Positions 3,145-12,253 of a stretch of 12,253 nucleotides of DNA are shown here, in pieces. This DNA is from a virus (lineage: Duplodnaviria; Heunggongvirae; Uroviricota; Caudoviricetes). The notes below the pieces were generated by a model. That model had not been told where the DNA came from, ran no database searches, and worked only from the letters and a program-made list of their open reading frames with translations. Each line of letters opens with the position of its first letter. Positions within the stretch are counted from its first letter, which is position 1. Position numbers and translations under genes: made by a program. The stretch covers positions 1 through 12,253 of IMG/VR virus record IMGVR_UViG_3300028048_000107, one strand, 5' to 3'.

Positions 3145-3549
3145 TTATACCAACTCCATTTTCATAAATTTATTATAGTCTGTATAATACACTGTAGTTA
3201 TTCCAACTTGTCTTAAAACAAACTCACAGGCAGGACAAGGTTTGCAACAACACATTTGTCCATTACCATCTTCTCGATAAAGATAACAAGTAGCTCCGCT
3301 TAAATTATAAGTGGTTGAATGTATTACTGCATTAAGCTCTGCATGAATATAGTTATTTTTCGTAGTGAACTTCCTACACTTTTCATTTAAGAACTTTTGT
3401 TTAGGATGGGATTTTTCTACATTACAACCTCTAGCAAGTATCTTATTACCTTTAACTATCACACACCCTATGTTTATCCTATAGAATGTAGATTTATCAG
3501 CTTCAGCTTTTGCAAGTAGAAAATAATGTTTTTCTTTATTTGTCAACAT
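3145..3549 (-). CDS. Zinc-dependent cytidine/dCMP deaminase-family protein
   Basis: IGCVIVKGNKILARGCN, HAE (Zn-binding His, catalytic Glu) and KPCPAC (two Zn-binding Cys); 134 aa. Confidence 0.9.
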   Translation of the reverse strand: MLTNKEKHYFLLAKAEADKSTFYRINIGCVIVKGNKILARGCNVEKSHPKQKFLNEKCRKFTTKNNYIHAELNAVIHSTTYNLSGATCYLYREDGNGQMCCCKPCPACEFVLRQVGITTVYYTDYNKFMKMELV

Positions 3550-4318: not shown

Positions 4319-4696
4319 TTATTCTCCTTTCACTACTCTAACATCTTTAAGTGAATATTTAACATGCCAAACCTTACTTTTATTTTCTCTTGTATATGAG
4401 TATACTATTCCTTTAATTGTAATTGGATTATTCCAATTAAATTCTTCTACATTAAAGTTCTTAAATTCTTCTAAGTGAATCCACAAATGATCCACATCTG
4501 GGATATTACTGACACTAAATAATACTGATTTACCAATAAAATTTACAGACAATACATCTTGCAGAGCTAATATCTTCCCAGTTAAGGTTATCTCTTTATC
4601 CAAAAATTTTCTGAAAAAATCGCCTCTAGCTTTAGCCTGTTCACCTAACTTAAGTCCAATTTTATTTTTTGTTCTATGACTCATCCCATAGCTCAT
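4319..4696 (-). CDS. Hypothetical protein, possible OB-fold (125 aa)
   Basis: Beta-strand pattern ITLTGKI ... ITIKGIVYSY ... YSLKDVRVV resembles OB-fold strands; basic N-terminus. Start may be the ATG at 4684. Fold assignment is inference. Confidence 0.7.
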   Translation of the reverse strand: MSYGMSHRTKNKIGLKLGEQAKARGDFFRKFLDKEITLTGKILALQDVLSVNFIGKSVLFSVSNIPDVDHLWIHLEEFKNFNVEEFNWNNPITIKGIVYSYTRENKSKVWHVKYSLKDVRVVKGE

Positions 4697-5357
4697 CCTC
4701 CGACAAAAAGTATATTTGAGTACCTACTACTTTTAGATATTGCTTTTCTATGAAGTCAACCCAAGAAGTAGTTGGCCCAATACCTAAAGACTTCTTATGT
4801 GGTGATAAAAATCTCTTAAATGTTCCTATATGCATTCCATTTTCAAAAGGTACTTCTAAGATGTTTCCGTTTACTCTTTTTACCCAAACTCTTTTCTTGT
4901 ATGAGTTATAAATAGTTGCAGTATCATTTGTCCTAGTTATTCTAGTAATAAATGAATTATTATCTTTCGTGTCAATCTCCTCTATATCCACATATTTGAG
5001 ATCAACACCAACAGATTTAAGATTCGATAACTTCTGTCCAAGGGATGTTACAAGCGTTACTCTTTTTAAGTGATCTGTAATGGCTTTAAGTGCTATTGCT
5101 AAATCTTTATCTTGAGTAATAACATAATACTGAAAGATATTATCTTCATATAGAGATTTAACAATATCTGCGGTCATATAGGTATCTGCACTATTTTTAC
5201 CGTGACAACAATCAATAAATTCTACATTACTAAGTCTAAGATATATACCACTAATTACTGACTTCTTTGCGTATACTTTATACTTTTCTTCTTTATGTTT
5301 AAGATAGAACTGCTTAAAAAGAGTTTTACTAATATTTTCTGCGTCCACAAAAACCAT
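4674..5357 (-). CDS. NYN-domain (PIN-like) putative ribonuclease with C-terminal winged-helix (LOTUS/OST-HTH-like) extension
   Basis: VFVDAENI, GKNSADTYM and ITQDKDL retain the acidic metal-binding residues of NYN domains; GAGGTGA RBS; directly downstream of a consensus promoter. Confidence 0.82.
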   Translation of the reverse strand: MVFVDAENISKTLFKQFYLKHKEEKYKVYAKKSVISGIYLRLSNVEFIDCCHGKNSADTYMTADIVKSLYEDNIFQYYVITQDKDLAIALKAITDHLKRVTLVTSLGQKLSNLKSVGVDLKYVDIEEIDTKDNNSFITRITRTNDTATIYNSYKKRVWVKRVNGNILEVPFENGMHIGTFKRFLSPHKKSLGIGPTTSWVDFIEKQYLKVVGTQIYFLSEDELWDES

Positions 5358-7143: not shown

Positions 7144-7686
7144 TTACAGTCCCTTAAAAACATAATCAGGAGGAACTGAATGTTCTATAGGATCTATAAT
7201 AACATCTTTTTTAGCCAATTCAGCCCAATATGCATACTGCCTAGCCTTTTCTTTTTCTTTCTCTACAGATTCACTTTTCTTATGTGACATTCGCATAGAA
7301 TATTTAATGAAATTACCTATTAAAAATCCATAAAACTGCTCCTTAGACATAATTCTTTGCATCACCTGTATTGGTTGAAGTGCTGAATTTTGATAATGTT
7401 CTTGTTTTGCAGATACTCCGCAATTGGCACTAGATGTTTTTCTTGCAAATAAAGGAGTAAACATTTCTTCTGTCCAAAAATGTATTCCAGAGTCAATATC
7501 TAATCTATAAACATATATTTCTTCAACATCATCATATTCTACAGATGTAATGCAAGCTTCTGTTCTTGCATAATTACACATACCACTAGAAACTCTAGGA
7601 GTAAAGTTATCAATATCTTTAATTCTAACATAGTCTCCTATCTTATATTTATAGGATTCTGATTTAATGTCAAGAATTTTGTCCAT
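7144..7686 (-). CDS. DUF3310 (SaV-like) domain protein with N-terminal SH3-like domain
   Basis: C-terminal HYQNSALQPIQVM...FYGFLIGNFIKYSMR..K....EKEKEKARQY matches the DUF3310 pattern; N-terminal YKIGDYVRIK...EACITSV...YRLDID...FWTEEMF is SH3/YorP-like; GGAGG RBS. Confidence 0.82.
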   Translation of the reverse strand: MDKILDIKSESYKYKIGDYVRIKDIDNFTPRVSSGMCNYARTEACITSVEYDDVEEIYVYRLDIDSGIHFWTEEMFTPLFARKTSSANCGVSAKQEHYQNSALQPIQVMQRIMSKEQFYGFLIGNFIKYSMRMSHKKSESVEKEKEKARQYAYWAELAKKDVIIDPIEHSVPPDYVFKGL

Positions 7687-8377
7687 TGTATACCTCCATA
7701 ACCTCTTTTAATGTTGGTGCTTTTCCACAAGACATCTTACCTTCAGGACAATAACCTAAAGATATACAAGATGCTCCTGCATTCTTAAAAATAATAGGTG
7801 ATGCTTCTTTACAAAGTCTAAGCATTTCATTAGCTACTACTCTAAATTCATATTGAGCACGATTACAACATCTTAAATTAAAAATATGAAACAATTCTTG
7901 TGCATTTACTGTAGTAATGATTTTTGTTTCACATGCATTAGGAAGAACTGACCTAGCATCTTCTTTTTTAAAACCTGCATCTACAAGTCTTTTATAGAAT
8001 CCTGCAATATTCTGCATAAAGGATTCATATTCAGAAGCCATATTAGAATTAGCTATCGCTTTTGGTACAATATACTGAAAATTTTCTTCATTAACATATC
8101 TTTGACTACGTTGATCTAGAGTTAACCCTACATGATGCCGACAAAATTGGTGACTGAAAGCCCTAGATACTCCTTCTATAGCAAAGGTAAAATATATCTG
8201 AGTAAAAGGACTTGCATGCCCACTTTCGGCTAAATCTTCAACTAAAGCTTTAATTTTCTCCCATGTAAGATTTTCCATTAAGGTTTCTATATTTACTGTA
8301 TTTGCATAACAAAGTCTTGCAGCTGATGCAACAATAAGTTCTGGTTCTGGTGTATGTGTTAATAAAATTACCCTCAT
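7670..8377 (-). CDS. thyX: FAD-dependent thymidylate synthase ThyX (235 aa)
   Basis: MRVILLTHTPEPE..VASAARLCY, GHASPF, FAIEGVSRAFSHQFCRHH...QRSQRYV, EDARSVLPNA, RAQYEFR, C-terminal GASC...CPEGKMSCG. True start ATG 8377 (GAGG RBS); the 8518 extension overlaps another gene. Confidence 0.92.
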   Translation of the reverse strand: MRVILLTHTPEPELIVASAARLCYANTVNIETLMENLTWEKIKALVEDLAESGHASPFTQIYFTFAIEGVSRAFSHQFCRHHVGLTLDQRSQRYVNEENFQYIVPKAIANSNMASEYESFMQNIAGFYKRLVDAGFKKEDARSVLPNACETKIITTVNAQELFHIFNLRCCNRAQYEFRVVANEMLRLCKEASPIIFKNAGASCISLGYCPEGKMSCGKAPTLKEVMEVYNGQNS

Positions 8378-8381
8378 ATTT

Positions 8382-8654
8382 TTATTCCTCATCTTTAGAT
8401 AGAACAAGCATAAAGCTATTTGCTTCAAAATACATAACAACTCTACCATATTTGGAATGGATAAAATACCACCAATAGTCCATAGAATTATTATCATAAA
8501 CATCTTCTGTAAAACCATTACCCATTAACACTTCTCTTAAATTATAAGGAGAAATGCTTGTTCCTGTAAAGTTGACAGGTTCAAAATCTGTTAAAAACTT
8601 ATCTAAAGTAGTTTGTACAAAGTTTCTTTCTTCTTCAGTCAATATATATCTCAC
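8382..8654 (-). CDS. Hypothetical protein (90 aa)
   Basis: ATGA overlap with the upstream gene (8651-8654); ends 4 nt before the thyX start. Confidence 0.8.
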   Translation of the reverse strand: MRYILTEEERNFVQTTLDKFLTDFEPVNFTGTSISPYNLREVLMGNGFTEDVYDNNSMDYWWYFIHSKYGRVVMYFEANSFMLVLSKDEE

Positions 8655-9130
8655 TTAAAACCCTCCAAAAAATCATCTATCTTTTTATAGTCCTTAAATA
8701 ATTCAGTTGGTTTCTTATCTGCTATACGAGCTTTAATCATTTCGTAAACATGGTCTAATTTTTCAGAAATTTCTTTAGCTTCTAGAGGCATTTTAATTGA
8801 GTAATCAGTAACAAGTTCAAACATGTGTGCTAATTTACTGGTATATGCCAATGGCGTATAGCTAGGTTTTCCATCCGCAGATTTCTTAGCTTCAGCTAAA
8901 GCATACCCAACCCCTCCCCCATAAACATATATAAACAAAGGATACTCAAGAGGAATACATCTAGTAGGATAAGGGTGCTTTTTCTTAGATGGAGAACTAT
9001 GCTCCTTTTCTAAAATTTCAGCAACCCTCTCCCTAGAGCCTGTAGCTTTTTTAATTTTTTTAACAGGGTTAGCTACATTACCCTTTTCTTTCATTATTGT
9101 TTTGCTAGTTTTTGACCCCTTTCTCGGCAT
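8651..9130 (-). CDS. Hypothetical protein with Lys/Arg-rich N-terminal tail (159 aa)
   Basis: AAGGGGG RBS; basic, probably disordered N-terminus (MPRKGSKTSKTIMKEKGNVANPVKKIKK) followed by a globular segment. Confidence 0.8.
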   Translation of the reverse strand: MPRKGSKTSKTIMKEKGNVANPVKKIKKATGSRERVAEILEKEHSSPSKKKHPYPTRCIPLEYPLFIYVYGGGVGYALAEAKKSADGKPSYTPLAYTSKLAHMFELVTDYSIKMPLEAKEISEKLDHVYEMIKARIADKKPTELFKDYKKIDDFLEGFK

Positions 9131-10028
9131 TATTAAGCCCCCTTATGAAATTAAACATATCATCAACACTGCGATTTTTAATATCATATGTAAAGTTAGA
9201 TGTAGAACTCTTAGCAAATTTATTATTGACAAGATCTACATAGAATGTAAATGAACCATCATCACCTTGATACATAGTTTCCCACTCATCTTCACTAAGC
9301 ATAGATTTAATATCTAATTGCTTACAAGCAAGAGTATCAAAACCAATACCTTTAAATTCTCCGTAAAAAGCTTTGGTTCTTAAATACTTCTTTAAGAAAT
9401 CTTGATTATCAGCAATAAGCCTATTCATATGCTCATAATACTCTTTACCACGACCTATATTTTTATATCCTAGTATTAAAAGATTTAAATCTCTAGAAGC
9501 TAAATGATATAGATCTTCTTCACTAAATATACCTGCAACTACATGAATAACTACATTTTCTACTTTTGATAGGCATAAAAAGAACTCCCCTTCGTATTTC
9601 TTATAAGAAATACCAATGCCATGAATAAGTCCATTTTCTTGCCAATCAACTAATGTTTGTAAATTATACATAAATTGATTTTGATTTACTGTGATGTTAG
9701 CAAATACTTTTTGAGCTTTAAGCATTTCTAAAAATGGTAGTAATGTAGGGTTATCTAAATCATTTCCATTTAATGCAAGCTCTGTATATGGGTGCAATGA
9801 CGGAATAAAAGTATTCACTACATAATCAGATATTAAATCTGCATGTTTACCTTTTGGTGTACAACCCAAATAGCAAAAATTACACGATTGACTACACTTC
9901 TGTGTTATAGAAACATCCATACTTTCTGCAAAGGAAGGATGAAAATCATCCTCCTTTGAGATTCTAATTTTAGTACCTGTATTTTCGTCTATACTTACAT
10001 AGACATTGCCATTCTTGTACTTTACCAT
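9105..10028 (-). CDS. Radical SAM enzyme (phage family starting YKNGN...GTKIR), no SPASM/twitch domain
   Basis: CxxxCxxC motif KCSQSCNFCY preceded by DVSIT; ELALNG (the usual GGE position is altered), NITVNQ, GIGIS, VIHVVAG, LLILGYK barrel strands; only three Cys outside the triad. Confidence 0.92.
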   Translation of the reverse strand: MVKYKNGNVYVSIDENTGTKIRISKEDDFHPSFAESMDVSITQKCSQSCNFCYLGCTPKGKHADLISDYVVNTFIPSLHPYTELALNGNDLDNPTLLPFLEMLKAQKVFANITVNQNQFMYNLQTLVDWQENGLIHGIGISYKKYEGEFFLCLSKVENVVIHVVAGIFSEEDLYHLASRDLNLLILGYKNIGRGKEYYEHMNRLIADNQDFLKKYLRTKAFYGEFKGIGFDTLACKQLDIKSMLSEDEWETMYQGDDGSFTFYVDLVNNKFAKSSTSNFTYDIKNRSVDDMFNFIRGLNNAEKGVKN

Positions 10029-10558
10029 GGAAGCACTTCTTTCTCTACTTCAAATTTAAGATCTCTTTTCATGTCATTAAAGATACAATACTCATCACCA
10101 TCAATAATTACAATATATTTAGGTGTGAAAATAAAATCTTCTAAAGTAACATTTTCTTCGCTTAAGAATTTTTGAAGTAATCCTTCTGATTGATGGTCTA
10201 CATAACCAAAAGGATACCATGTATCTTCTGGATCTGGAAGTTCAATATGGTCAAAATTTTTTACATGCTTTTTAATAATAGCTTCAAGCTTAGAAATAAA
10301 TTCTTTAGCTTCTTCATTATCTTTATTATATTCTTGACAATAAGATGCAATAGCGTAAGCTACTTTACTACGCCAAGTATTTAAAAATTGAAACGGATAA
10401 CGACTAAACTCTAAATCATCGTCAGAAAAATGTAATGTACCTCCATAATACACTTTAAGTTCTTTTTCATCATAACTATCATTATTCTTAGTAATAATAA
10501 TAGAGTGCATAGAAGATGAATTTGTTTCAAACATACCTTTTCTGATTGTTAATTTCAT
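10022..10558 (-). CDS. FETNSSSxH-motif protein (178 aa), radical SAM partner of unknown function
   Basis: N-terminal IRKGMFETNSSSMHSIII, internal GYVDHQS, C-terminal IVIIDGDE; its stop overlaps the radical SAM start (ATGGTAA, 10022-10028). Confidence 0.85.
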   Translation of the reverse strand: MKLTIRKGMFETNSSSMHSIIITKNNDSYDEKELKVYYGGTLHFSDDDLEFSRYPFQFLNTWRSKVAYAIASYCQEYNKDNEEAKEFISKLEAIIKKHVKNFDHIELPDPEDTWYPFGYVDHQSEGLLQKFLSEENVTLEDFIFTPKYIVIIDGDEYCIFNDMKRDLKFEVEKEVLPW

Positions 10559-10767
10559 AACTTATACCCCATTTCTGTAAGAATTTTATTAACATTTACT
10601 GTTGTTACATCTAACCCTTTTTTTGAACGACTCCATTCTCCATCTTTCATGAAATATTCATCAGCAAAAGGAGCTAGAATCTTAAATAGATTACCTTCTG
10701 TAATTAGAATATCGGCTGGTAATACTAATCCTACTTGTCTTACCACAGATGGTTTATAAACTAACAC
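10555..10767 (-). CDS. Hypothetical protein (70 aa), first gene after the promoter
   Basis: GTG start with GAGGTGA RBS; ATGA overlap with the FETNSSS gene. Confidence 0.8.
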   Translation of the reverse strand: MLVYKPSVVRQVGLVLPADILITEGNLFKILAPFADEYFMKDGEWSRSKKGLDVTTVNVNKILTEMGYKL

Positions 10768-10825: not shown

Positions 10826-11953
10826 TTAATCCTCACAGAGCTTCTTTTCTAATTTTTCTCGCAATTCTTTATAAAAATCTTCATGATTTTTTAAATATTC
10901 CATAGCTTTTGCTTTACCTTGAAATTTAAGTGGGTTATCTTCTGAATCTGTAATAACTTCTTCATTGTTATCTAAAAAGGAATACCATGCTCCACCTTTT
11001 TCAATAAGCCCATAAGTAACCCCCATCTCAAAAGTATCGTTATAACCGTCAATACCACAGTCATAAGAAATACTATATTTACTTACCCTCCTGTCTGGTA
11101 GAGTTGCTTTATTCTTTAATAACTCTACTTCAGCATAATTACCATAAGCTTCTTCTGCATGGGAAGTTAGCTCTTTATAGTTTTTATCATATAGTTTACC
11201 CTTACGAATTAACATTCTAAGGGAACATGTATGCTTAAACATACGACCACCTGGCGATATGACTTGATGATAGCCTGACAGGTCATCTCTACACTGATTA
11301 ACTCCTATAAACATACAACCATACTTATTACATAGAGGTAATAATTTAGAACAGAATGTAGATAGGGGGGCAGATATGCCACAATAGCTCTTATCTTCCA
11401 TAGTTTTCTCTGCTACACTTTTTGGAACAAGAGCTGGTATGGAATCCAATATCACACAACCTACTCCATCACTATCAATAAGTTCTAATAATATTTGAAA
11501 TAACTGTTCAGCAGTTTGATTCTCTGGGGCAATAAAGATAAGATCATCTACATCAACACCATTCTTATACATCCAATCTTCATCACTTGAGAACTCACTA
11601 TCAAGATATACAACTTTTTTATATCCTCGATCTTTAAGATATGCTAGTCTTTCTTTTTCTTCTTTATTAGGCTTTTCTTTTGCTTCTAATTCGGCAACCT
11701 CATTATCATGTTCTTGCTTTAGTACTTTTTGAGCACTTCCACAAATAGAATAGCATAAAGTGGATTTGCCAGCAGAGGGCATACCCAAAATTTCTACTAC
11801 AGTTCTAGGCATACCACCCCTAAAAAGAAATGTAAGAGCAGGACTCACAAGAGGAATACGAGCATAGTTACGCTTTTTAATGTCTGCTCTACCTACCATA
11901 TTAAAACCATATTTTTTATTTACATTTTTAATAACTTCGTCTAATTTACTCAT
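10826..11953 (-). CDS. recA: RecA-like recombinase (phage RecA/UvsX type)
   Basis: Walker A GMPSAGKST, VVYLDSE, PENQTAEQ, Walker B CVILDSIPAL, FIGVNQCR, SPGGRMFKH...LR, KNK, I.YD.GID..., GLIEKGGAWYS; 375 aa. Confidence 0.93.
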   Translation of the reverse strand: MSKLDEVIKNVNKKYGFNMVGRADIKKRNYARIPLVSPALTFLFRGGMPRTVVEILGMPSAGKSTLCYSICGSAQKVLKQEHDNEVAELEAKEKPNKEEKERLAYLKDRGYKKVVYLDSEFSSDEDWMYKNGVDVDDLIFIAPENQTAEQLFQILLELIDSDGVGCVILDSIPALVPKSVAEKTMEDKSYCGISAPLSTFCSKLLPLCNKYGCMFIGVNQCRDDLSGYHQVISPGGRMFKHTCSLRMLIRKGKLYDKNYKELTSHAEEAYGNYAEVELLKNKATLPDRRVSKYSISYDCGIDGYNDTFEMGVTYGLIEKGGAWYSFLDNNEEVITDSEDNPLKFQGKAKAMEYLKNHEDFYKELREKLEKKLCED

Positions 11954-12253
11954 ATATCCTCCTTTACTTTACTTAATCTAGCTTTAGCAATATTAAAATA
12001 TTCTAATTCTTTTTCTATACCAATAAACCCAAATCCTTCTAAAATACAAGCTATTCCAGTAGTACCACTTCCCATAAAAGGGTCTAATACAATTCCATTA
12101 TAGGGTGTCACTAATTTTACTAAATATCTCATTAAAGATATTGGCTTTACTGTTACATGATTATTGCCTTTTGGTAAATTCTCACAGCCCATATTCTTTT
12201 CAGATTTAGAAGCCTTAGAGCAATAAAAGAAACGAGAAATACCACCCTCATCA
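11950..12253 (-). CDS. DNA methyltransferase, N4-C/N6-A family, C-terminal part (5' end outside window)
   Basis: HVTVKPISLMRYLV...IVLDPFMGSGTTG...FIGIE (SAM-binding motif). The frame stays open upstream of ATG 12192 to the window edge, reading DEGGISRFFYCSKASKSEKN, a segment typical of these phage methylases. Confidence 0.9.
   Translation of the reverse strand, partial: DEGGISRFFYCSKASKSEKNMGCENLPKGNNHVTVKPISLMRYLVKLVTPYNGIVLDPFMGSGTTGIACILEGFGFIGIEKELEYFNIAKARLSKVKEDI

Follow-up and report, generated by a model that had tools for sequence, protein, structure and literature searches.

What does a phage enzyme of the radical S-adenosylmethionine (SAM) superfamily do with the small protein whose gene lies directly in front of it? 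This question is raised by a stretch of DNA that comprises the first 12,253 bases of the 92,075-base virus record IMGVR_UViG_3300028048_000107 (87% complete) and is called the window here. It encodes a radical SAM (rSAM) enzyme of 307 amino acids (aa), designated P0002, and, immediately upstream, a partner protein of 178 aa, designated P0001, which begins with a conserved segment containing the motif FETNSSS. The rSAM enzyme and the protein bearing this N-terminal tag are a dedicated, co-inherited two-component module. The two proteins probably interact physically, and structure prediction indicates that the tag is likely to insert directly into the active site of the enzyme. As for the activity, the evidence tilts towards a two-component phage protein-modification module, in which the rSAM enzyme recognises the tag and radically modifies it. 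In the window, the module consists of the following features:

10022-10558, minus strand: partner gene (P0001, 178 aa), an open reading frame (ORF)
9105-10028, minus strand: rSAM gene (P0002, 307 aa), an ORF
10502-10558, minus strand: N-terminal tag, partner residues 1-19 (M-K-x-x-I-R-x-G-x-F-E-T-N-S-S-S-x-H-S), from the alignment
9873-9896, minus strand: CxxxCxxC of the rSAM enzyme (C45, C49, C52), ligands of the [4Fe-4S] cluster, from the motif
9942-10028, minus strand: N-terminal extension of the rSAM enzyme, residues 1-29, from the alignment and the AlphaFold2 (AF2) model
10022-10028, minus strand: ATGGTAA overlap of the rSAM start codon with the partner stop codon (translational coupling)

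The partner carries FETNSSSMH at residues 10-18, GYVDHQS at residues 118-124 and IIDGDE at residues 151-156, while the enzyme carries CSQSCNFC at residues 45-52. The two ORFs with their motifs and the overlap of the genes had been described in an earlier, sequence-only reading of this DNA, and all of these were found as described.

The linkage of the two genes was scanned from both sides. On the rSAM side, 82 loci with an rSAM homologue (80 IMG/VR loci, Ma-LMM01 and Lak-B7) were searched for ORFs with the pattern E[TS]NSS[ST] near the N-terminus. At least one tag ORF was found at 79 of the 82 loci, and all 172 tag ORFs share the strand of the rSAM gene. In 68 loci the nearest tag ORF is no more than 100 nt away from the rSAM gene, and in none of the 79 is it farther off than 1 kb. 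The pattern occurs past residue 70 in 2 of 4,040 ORFs. In the reverse scan, an rSAM gene was present within 6 kb at 75 of 80 partner-family loci and at a distance of 11-12 kb at two more, so that 77 of the 80 have it on the same record; the records of the three loci without it are only 11-74% complete. The homologues are therefore co-located in both directions, and the statement in the sequence-only reading that the pair recurs in gut phages is borne out, the recurrence being far beyond chance. The 92-kb record itself has a single rSAM gene of this family and a single gene with the tag.

The module is carried by gut and rumen phages, Lak megaphages, the Microcystis phage Ma-LMM01 (gp130 and gp128) and the Salmonella phage Arash. 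A search of 185,579 prokaryotic species genomes revealed only 21 matching loci, nearly all of them on contigs of metagenome-assembled genomes (MAGs) of gut and rumen Clostridia and Tenericutes, with tags beside the rSAM gene in 17 of the 21; the module is thus essentially viral. No third gene travelling with it was found among the neighbours in about 50 lineages. The grouping of neighbours into lineages is approximate, because the rSAM and tag clusters run together through the fusion proteins.

P0002 had no Pfam match at E ≤ 1. It matches phrog_16999 at 1.4e-33 over residues 30-281; this family, to which Ma-LMM01 gp128 and phiYS40 gp161 belong, is labelled 'Fe-S oxidoreductase', a generic label that records no function, partner or tag. 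A tblastn search revealed homologues in Lak megaphages (~46% identity), in Microcystis phages, e.g., Ma-LMM01 gp128 (31%, 2e-31), and in Salmonella phage Arash (24%; gp146, 2e-7), together with a partial match in the Thermus phages phiYS40 (gp161, 3e-4) and TMA. A word-based search yielded 991 rSAM homologues. The threshold of Pfam Radical_SAM (PF04055), 29.5 bits, is passed by Arash gp146 (51.4), phiYS40 gp161 (46.6) and Ma-LMM01 gp128 (31.5). Because these relatives pass the threshold and CxxxCxxC is invariant, P0002 is a member of the radical SAM superfamily, with the assignment of the fold resting on a predicted model.

When 28 rSAM homologues were aligned, C45, C49 and C52 proved to be the sole invariant cysteines (28 of 28), and C56 was present in 25. 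There is no conserved cysteine column beyond these four, and no cysteines of a SPASM or twitch auxiliary cluster were found in the family. The alignment likewise confirmed the conservation of the N-terminal YKNGN...GTKIR stretch (Y4, N6, G7, N8, G18, K20, R22 and F29 are invariant), so that both the intact CxxxCxxC without SPASM/twitch cysteines and the N-terminal extension, as noted from the sequence before, are properties of the family. At the SAM-binding (GGE-type) position after the second β-strand, P0002 has A-L-N-G-N-D with N87, G88 and N89 invariant; the canonical GGGEP stands there in the relatives from Arash and phiYS40. The AF2 model (predicted local distance difference test, pLDDT, 89.7) shows a partial TIM barrel preceded by an extension of three short strands and followed by a β-hairpin region without auxiliary-cluster cysteines.

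The solved folds closest to the model are SkfB (Z 17.7; root-mean-square deviation 4.0 with 270 residues aligned) and SuiB (Z 17.4), followed by EpeE (Z 15.5), BlsE (Z 14.9), anSMEcpe (Z 13.9) and PqqE (Z 13.9). Most of these are peptide or protein modifiers, and BlsE acts in blasticidin S biosynthesis. A comparison of the rSAM profile with PDB sequences gave nothing significant. Viperin and QueE were neither among the Pfam and NCBIfam matches nor among the best 50 PDB matches listed for P0002.

The partner is more difficult to place. In 28 homologues with 36-87% identity, R6, F10-S16, H18, S19, D121, H122, S124 and D153-E156 are invariant. The word-based search found 201 P0001 homologues, all of them unnamed and lacking a Pfam domain, and an exhaustive search with HMMER at E ≤ 0.001 extended the family to at least 4,110 clusters at 50% identity. 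A tblastn search against 50,697 phage records found nothing, even though motif-bearing genes can be seen there by eye and by regular expression, which indicates that BLAST is too insensitive for this family. The HMMER search also brought up fused and duplicated forms of the partner, whereas a separate search for longer relatives had found none. P0304, P0342, P0344 and P0305 have one tag followed by two partner-type bodies, and P0307 has two tagged units in one chain; these are candidate fusions or cases of gene-calling read-through.

P0001 itself had no Pfam match at E ≤ 1, and its 28 homologues gave scattered single matches only. The AF2 model of P0001 (pLDDT 85.2; predicted template modelling score 0.84) has an α/β fold with low confidence in residues 1-12, as would be expected for a free tail. 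Comparison of the model with the PDB by Foldseek gave a best E-value of 0.56, and VIA-align 2 against 48,161 representative chains gave a best Z of 2.7 without a fold match. The AlphaFold Database clusters yielded only uncharacterised, mostly viral relatives, and the ESM Atlas only viral hypothetical proteins. Nothing meaningful was found in Pfam, NCBIfam and PADLOC for either protein of the module; the weak NCBIfam matches, to YydG, CbpB and Cps4B, were rejected, being far under the cut-offs of these families. A confident match of one of them to a known family with an independent function, which would have spoken against a joint role as conceived in the sequence-only reading, was absent from these databases and from the fold comparisons.

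The tag is not confined to P0001-type proteins. When 138 distinct tagged proteins were grouped by their bodies, after removal of the first 25 residues, 71 of them (147-243 aa), including P0001 and Ma-LMM01 gp130, formed the main group. A second group contains 45 short proteins (96-145 aa) ending in A-F-G-x-Y-G-Y-D-G, and there are several small groups besides. According to hhalign, the main group is unrelated to the second (0.3%) and to a third (0.6%), and still the tags of both large groups have R, F, E, N, S, S, S and H as invariant residues. The tag is thus found on at least three bodies scored as unrelated, and most bodies other than the P0001 type are devoid of DHQS and DGDE. Judging by these sequence comparisons, the FETNSSS motif is a portable N-terminal tag. 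Since most other tagged bodies lack DHQS and DGDE, the role of the tag cannot depend on those motifs.

The number of tagged genes that go with one rSAM gene ranges from one to six. The commonest layout is one main-type gene, one short-type gene and the rSAM gene (43 loci); the layout of the window, one main-type gene and the rSAM gene, was found at 14 loci, and Lak phages have four or five tagged genes in a row. The short family (e.g., L002:6681-6983) accompanies the module in most phages and is absent from the 92-kb record considered here. In distant relatives the tag is eroded, to F-A-T-N-S-S-S in Arash and to M-T-N-S-S-S in phiYS40 gp162, which points to T-N-S-S-S as its deepest core. The phiYS40 protein gp162 (317 aa, starting with M-T-N-S-S-S-A-S) is encoded directly upstream of the rSAM homologue gp161 (L189:3340-5357); hhalign (1.8%) detects no relationship between its body and the partner family, so this protein can be regarded as a lead only. 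Every tagged group is acidic, with a median isoelectric point (pI) of ~4.6, and P0001 has a pI of 4.8. A role as a DNA mimic against restriction, considered in view of this pI, was dropped, as acidity alone is no evidence.

The complex of enzyme and partner was predicted in three runs with both alignments submitted and with the 4Fe-4S cluster and SAM included, alongside three controls. The complex scores were 0.06, 0.82 and 0.85 (median 0.82), while the best of the three controls reached 0.01. In the calibration of the tool, which was made without small molecules or user-made alignments, 58 of 80 solved complexes attained that mark, as against 2 of 110 mismatched pairs. The runs agree in at least 52% of the contacts, and the pLDDT of the partner is at least 71. 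On the partner side, the predicted interface comprises residues 1-15 and residues 21, 56, 58, 60, 149, 151 and 153. On the enzyme side, it comprises residues 17-29 and the C-terminal ends of every barrel strand (predicted contacts at 36-40, 83-87, 109-113, 136-139, 158-162, 182-186, 226-231 and 250-255). The pairs with the lowest predicted error join rSAM residues 19-24 to partner residues 2-8 by β-strand addition, with partner residues 9-15 placed inside the barrel. Docking of the motif in the barrel, which had been named as a check in the sequence-only reading, is therefore predicted with a median score far over that of the controls. Invariant residues are enriched at the interface in both proteins: 19 were observed against 10.5 expected in the enzyme (p = 0.002), and 9 against 2.7 in the partner (p = 0.0002). 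The complex model thus supports binding of the partner by the rSAM enzyme.

Natural fusions point the same way. In L022 (5986-7347) and L023, the rSAM frame runs without a stop codon into the tag protein, giving 453 aa; at these loci, a separate tag protein with a shorter head might also be translated from two in-frame GTG codons that directly precede the tag. The opposite order, tag and body followed by the rSAM enzyme in one chain, is found in P0316 (575 aa) and in gp146 of Salmonella phage Arash (476 aa), the N-terminal domain of which matches the partner profile with an hhalign probability of 97%. Fusion in both orders argues for a physical association of the two proteins. Arash is a cultured phage that has the whole module in one protein (L188:4542-5972, OQ632216.1). 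This protein is annotated as 'methyltransferase', which looks like a misannotation.

Among known systems, glycyl-radical activases carry a single cluster, as does the rSAM enzyme of the module. Together with the anaerobic sulfatase-maturing enzymes (anSMEs; anSMEcpe, 4k36-4k39) and CrpC, which acts on CrpA (PMC13692751), they belong to the protein-maturing rSAM enzymes, and the likeness lies in a dedicated rSAM enzyme beside a protein client and in a short, highly conserved motif of the client that enters the barrel, the latter being predicted for the module. The anSMEs act on Ser or Cys, and anSMEcpe is one of the structural matches to P0002 given above. There are also differences. Clients of anSMEs have a C/S-x-P/A-x-R motif, whereas the tag of the module, R-x3-F-E-T-N-S-S-S-x-H-S, has no x-P-x-R. 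Auxiliary clusters are needed by anSME and CrpC (two in anSME/AtsB), whereas the module enzyme has no auxiliary cysteines. Glycyl-radical enzymes have an invariant glycine in the radical loop, whereas G8 of the tag is not invariant and the tag has no other conserved glycine. Finally, the fold of the module client has no PDB match.

The closest likeness in structure is to the maturases of ribosomally synthesised peptides with post-translational modifications (RiPPs), namely SkfB (6efn), SuiB (5v1s/5v1t), CteB (5why) and ChlB (9gm3). Like them, P0002 has an N-terminal element ahead of the barrel, and the structural alignment with SkfB and SuiB, its best matches, begins at model residue 1. In RiPP maturases, a substrate segment adds as a β-strand and then enters the barrel, as predicted for the module, and one enzyme can serve several precursors with a common conserved recognition peptide. 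However, sequence identity to P0002 is only 10-13% without a family HMM (hidden Markov model) match. The module enzyme has no SPASM/twitch cysteines, and its N-terminal element consists of ~29 residues of β-sheet and not of a full PqqD-like winged helix (RiPP recognition element, RRE). The clients are folded proteins of 96-243 aa and not short leader–core precursor peptides, and their conserved part is at the extreme N-terminus, so that the recognition and reaction sites appear contiguous. The module may work like RiPP systems, yet it does not have the properties by which a RiPP maturase and its precursor are defined.

The preferred reading, modification of the tag by the rSAM enzyme, can be put as a sequence of steps. 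An rSAM enzyme with a single [4Fe-4S] cluster and without auxiliary clusters would capture the free N-terminal tag of the partner in two steps. Tag residues 2-8, including the invariant R6, would add as a β-strand onto the conserved N-terminal hairpin of the enzyme, and residues 9-15 (F-E-T-N-S-S-S) would then pass above SAM and the cluster, across the barrel's top. There, the 5'-deoxyadenosyl radical would take a hydrogen from a residue of the T-N-S-S-S core, and the resulting covalent change would be needed for the function of the partner and, in other phages, of further tagged proteins. We infer from the portability of the tag across unrelated bodies, from its small and polar invariant residues, from its predicted location at the substrate place of the enzyme and from the action of the nearest enzymes on peptides and proteins that the tag is the substrate. 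The CrpC system, in which the rSAM enzyme acts on a whole protein of the same gene cluster (PMC13692751), is counted as a precedent. The absence of an auxiliary cluster and of conserved extra cysteines argues against thioether formation, methylthiolation and cysteine-dependent epimerisation of the known types; the candidate chemistries are redox-neutral ones (epimerisation, rearrangement or cross-link) and a DesII-like oxidation of Ser to an aldehyde. The sequence-only reading had also proposed modification of the Ser-rich motif, with DHQS and DGDE supplying the active site. The predicted position of the motif inside the barrel agrees with the former part; the latter does not fit a portable tag, most other bearers of which are without DHQS and DGDE. 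Pyruvoyl or N-terminal nucleophile (Ntn)-type self-processing at N-S or S-S was also considered and dropped, since no rSAM enzyme is required for it.

Several observations weigh against this preference. One of the three complex runs scored only 0.06, and the docking may echo solved complexes of RiPP maturases with peptides. The tag is not absolutely fixed, as the F-A-T-N-S-S-S of Arash demonstrates. The rSAM enzyme has no counterpart of the auxiliary clusters of its best-matching maturases, so their chemistry is not transferable to it. A fusion of enzyme and partner, or their tight coupling in translation, is a more usual finding for subunits than for an enzyme and its substrate, and F56 and D153, invariant residues of the body, lie at the predicted interface, which is also compatible with a composite active site. 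These last points lead to the main alternative, possible though to our mind doubtful, of an obligate heteromeric rSAM enzyme, in which the tagged protein, itself not catalytic, serves as a subunit for specificity or capping, and a third molecule (such as a nucleotide, RNA, DNA or a metabolite) is the substrate of the complex. The N-terminal peptide would then plug the barrel and supply the polar residues E, T, N, S, S, S and H, and paralogous bodies would retarget one catalytic subunit. The other proposal of the sequence-only reading, joint production of a modified nucleotide or a metabolite by the two proteins, may hold in this form. Besides the fusions in both orders, the overlap of start and stop codons and the position of F56 and D153, such a complex would account for the presence of a P0001-type body at nearly every locus with other bodies optional, and for the lack in the enzyme of the C-terminal cluster domain with which its nearest relatives close the barrel. 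It would also agree with the nucleotide and nucleic-acid genes nearby in the window (RecA, ThyX, dCMP deaminase, NYN, DHH and Dam) and with the RNA-repair and NAD (nicotinamide adenine dinucleotide) genes in other phages. However, the modelled peptide sits at the place of a substrate, the unrelated bodies have only the tag in common, the nearest solved enzymes all act on peptides, and neither a third conserved gene (in the survey of neighbours) nor a recognisable ligand-binding domain (with Pfam on 28 homologues) was found.

The same predicted strand addition resembles leader-peptide binding, and with the nearest folds being RiPP maturases and the N-terminal peptide being invariant ahead of variable C-terminal parts, one might think of a RiPP-like product. 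The 15-19 invariant N-terminal residues would be modified and then released by cleavage, to act as a peptide signal, inhibitor or cofactor of small size, with the bodies serving as followers or scaffolds. We regard this as improbable, given that neither protease nor transporter genes are recurrent among the surveyed neighbours of the module, that the main body is strongly conserved (invariant DH.S and DGDE, confident fold), which would be superfluous for a mere scaffold, and that the tag is internal in the L022-type fusions. Even harder to reconcile with the data is the notion of two independent neighbours, an rSAM enzyme that makes a nucleotide-type product, as viperin and QueE do, beside a 178-aa protein that is a separate hydrolase. 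The DH.S and DGDE of the partner do look like a metal-dependent active site, and the surroundings are those of nucleotide metabolism, but the two-way linkage across very distant phages, the fusions in both orders and a complex score well over the controls leave this notion a very small chance. Returning to modification of the tag, a more far-reaching version of it can be offered only tentatively: the single-cluster rSAM enzyme would install a radical-derived modification or cofactor in the T-N-S-S-S tag and thereby activate acidic proteins of a new fold, and other tagged clients, for nucleic-acid metabolism in early infection or for counter-defence, in phages of many lineages.

Literature searches revealed no description of the module, the motif string was in no paper found, and gp146 is not discussed in the Arash paper. 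The scale is considerable, with at least 4,110 partner clusters and 991 rSAM homologues, and neither protein has a Pfam family. If the tag is indeed modified, this would be a new rSAM protein modification, made on a Ser/Thr/Asn motif without auxiliary clusters, and the module would represent a new class of phage-encoded protein maturation with a new protein fold. The cultured systems, Arash with its fused gp146 and Ma-LMM01 with gp128 and gp130, make the question directly testable.

Every gene of the region is carried by the minus strand, according to the ORF reading of the window. The features around the module are as follows:

10817-10789, minus strand: sigma-70-like promoter, TTGACA-17-TATACT with a TG ahead of the second hexamer; the consensus is matched at 11 of 12 positions
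10555-10767, minus strand: ORF of 70 aa with a GTG start; its stop overlaps the partner start by ATGA
8570-8541, minus strand: second promoter-like site, between the pair and thyX
7670-8518, minus strand: thyX, longest ORF
1676-2611, 3145-3549, 4674-5357, 7144-7686 and 10826-11953, all minus strand: genes of a replication/nucleotide block
674-1183 and 11950-12252, both minus strand: DNA methyltransferase genes

The promoter at 10817-10789 stands upstream of three coupled genes, those of the 70-aa ORF, the partner and the rSAM enzyme. As the 70-aa ORF, for which no family match was found, comes first, the pair are the second and third genes after a near-consensus promoter, just as described before. 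Co-transcription of thyX with the pair, as in the operon described there, is no more than plausible on the sequence signals: between the promoter and thyX the minus strand was found to be free of terminator-like sites, and yet there is the second promoter-like site. The Thy1 domain begins at residue 52 of the longest thyX ORF, which starts at 8518. A likelier start is the M-R-V-I-L-L-T-H at residue 48 (~8377), right after the stop of an upstream ORF of 90 aa (8382-8654).

The surrounding minus-strand array is a replication/nucleotide block with a DHH/DHHA1 phosphoesterase, a dCMP/cytidine deaminase, an NYN-domain protein, a DUF3310 protein and a RecA homologue. One of the two methyltransferases is of the phage Dam type (PF05869, 9e-37), and of the other, an N6_N4 methylase (PF01555), the C-terminal part is present, truncated at the end of the window. 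In other phages, the most frequent neighbour of the module is an enzyme of the CCA-adding or poly(A) polymerase type, found in ~12 of the ~50 lineages. Less frequent are Rnl1- and Rnl2-like RNA ligases, RlaP, a metallophosphoesterase, a class-V aminotransferase (cysteine desulfurase-like), NadE (NAD synthase) and an isochorismatase. These neighbours (loci L003-L162) point to a theme of RNA repair, NAD and iron–sulfur (Fe-S) metabolism in 5-12 of the ~50 lineages.

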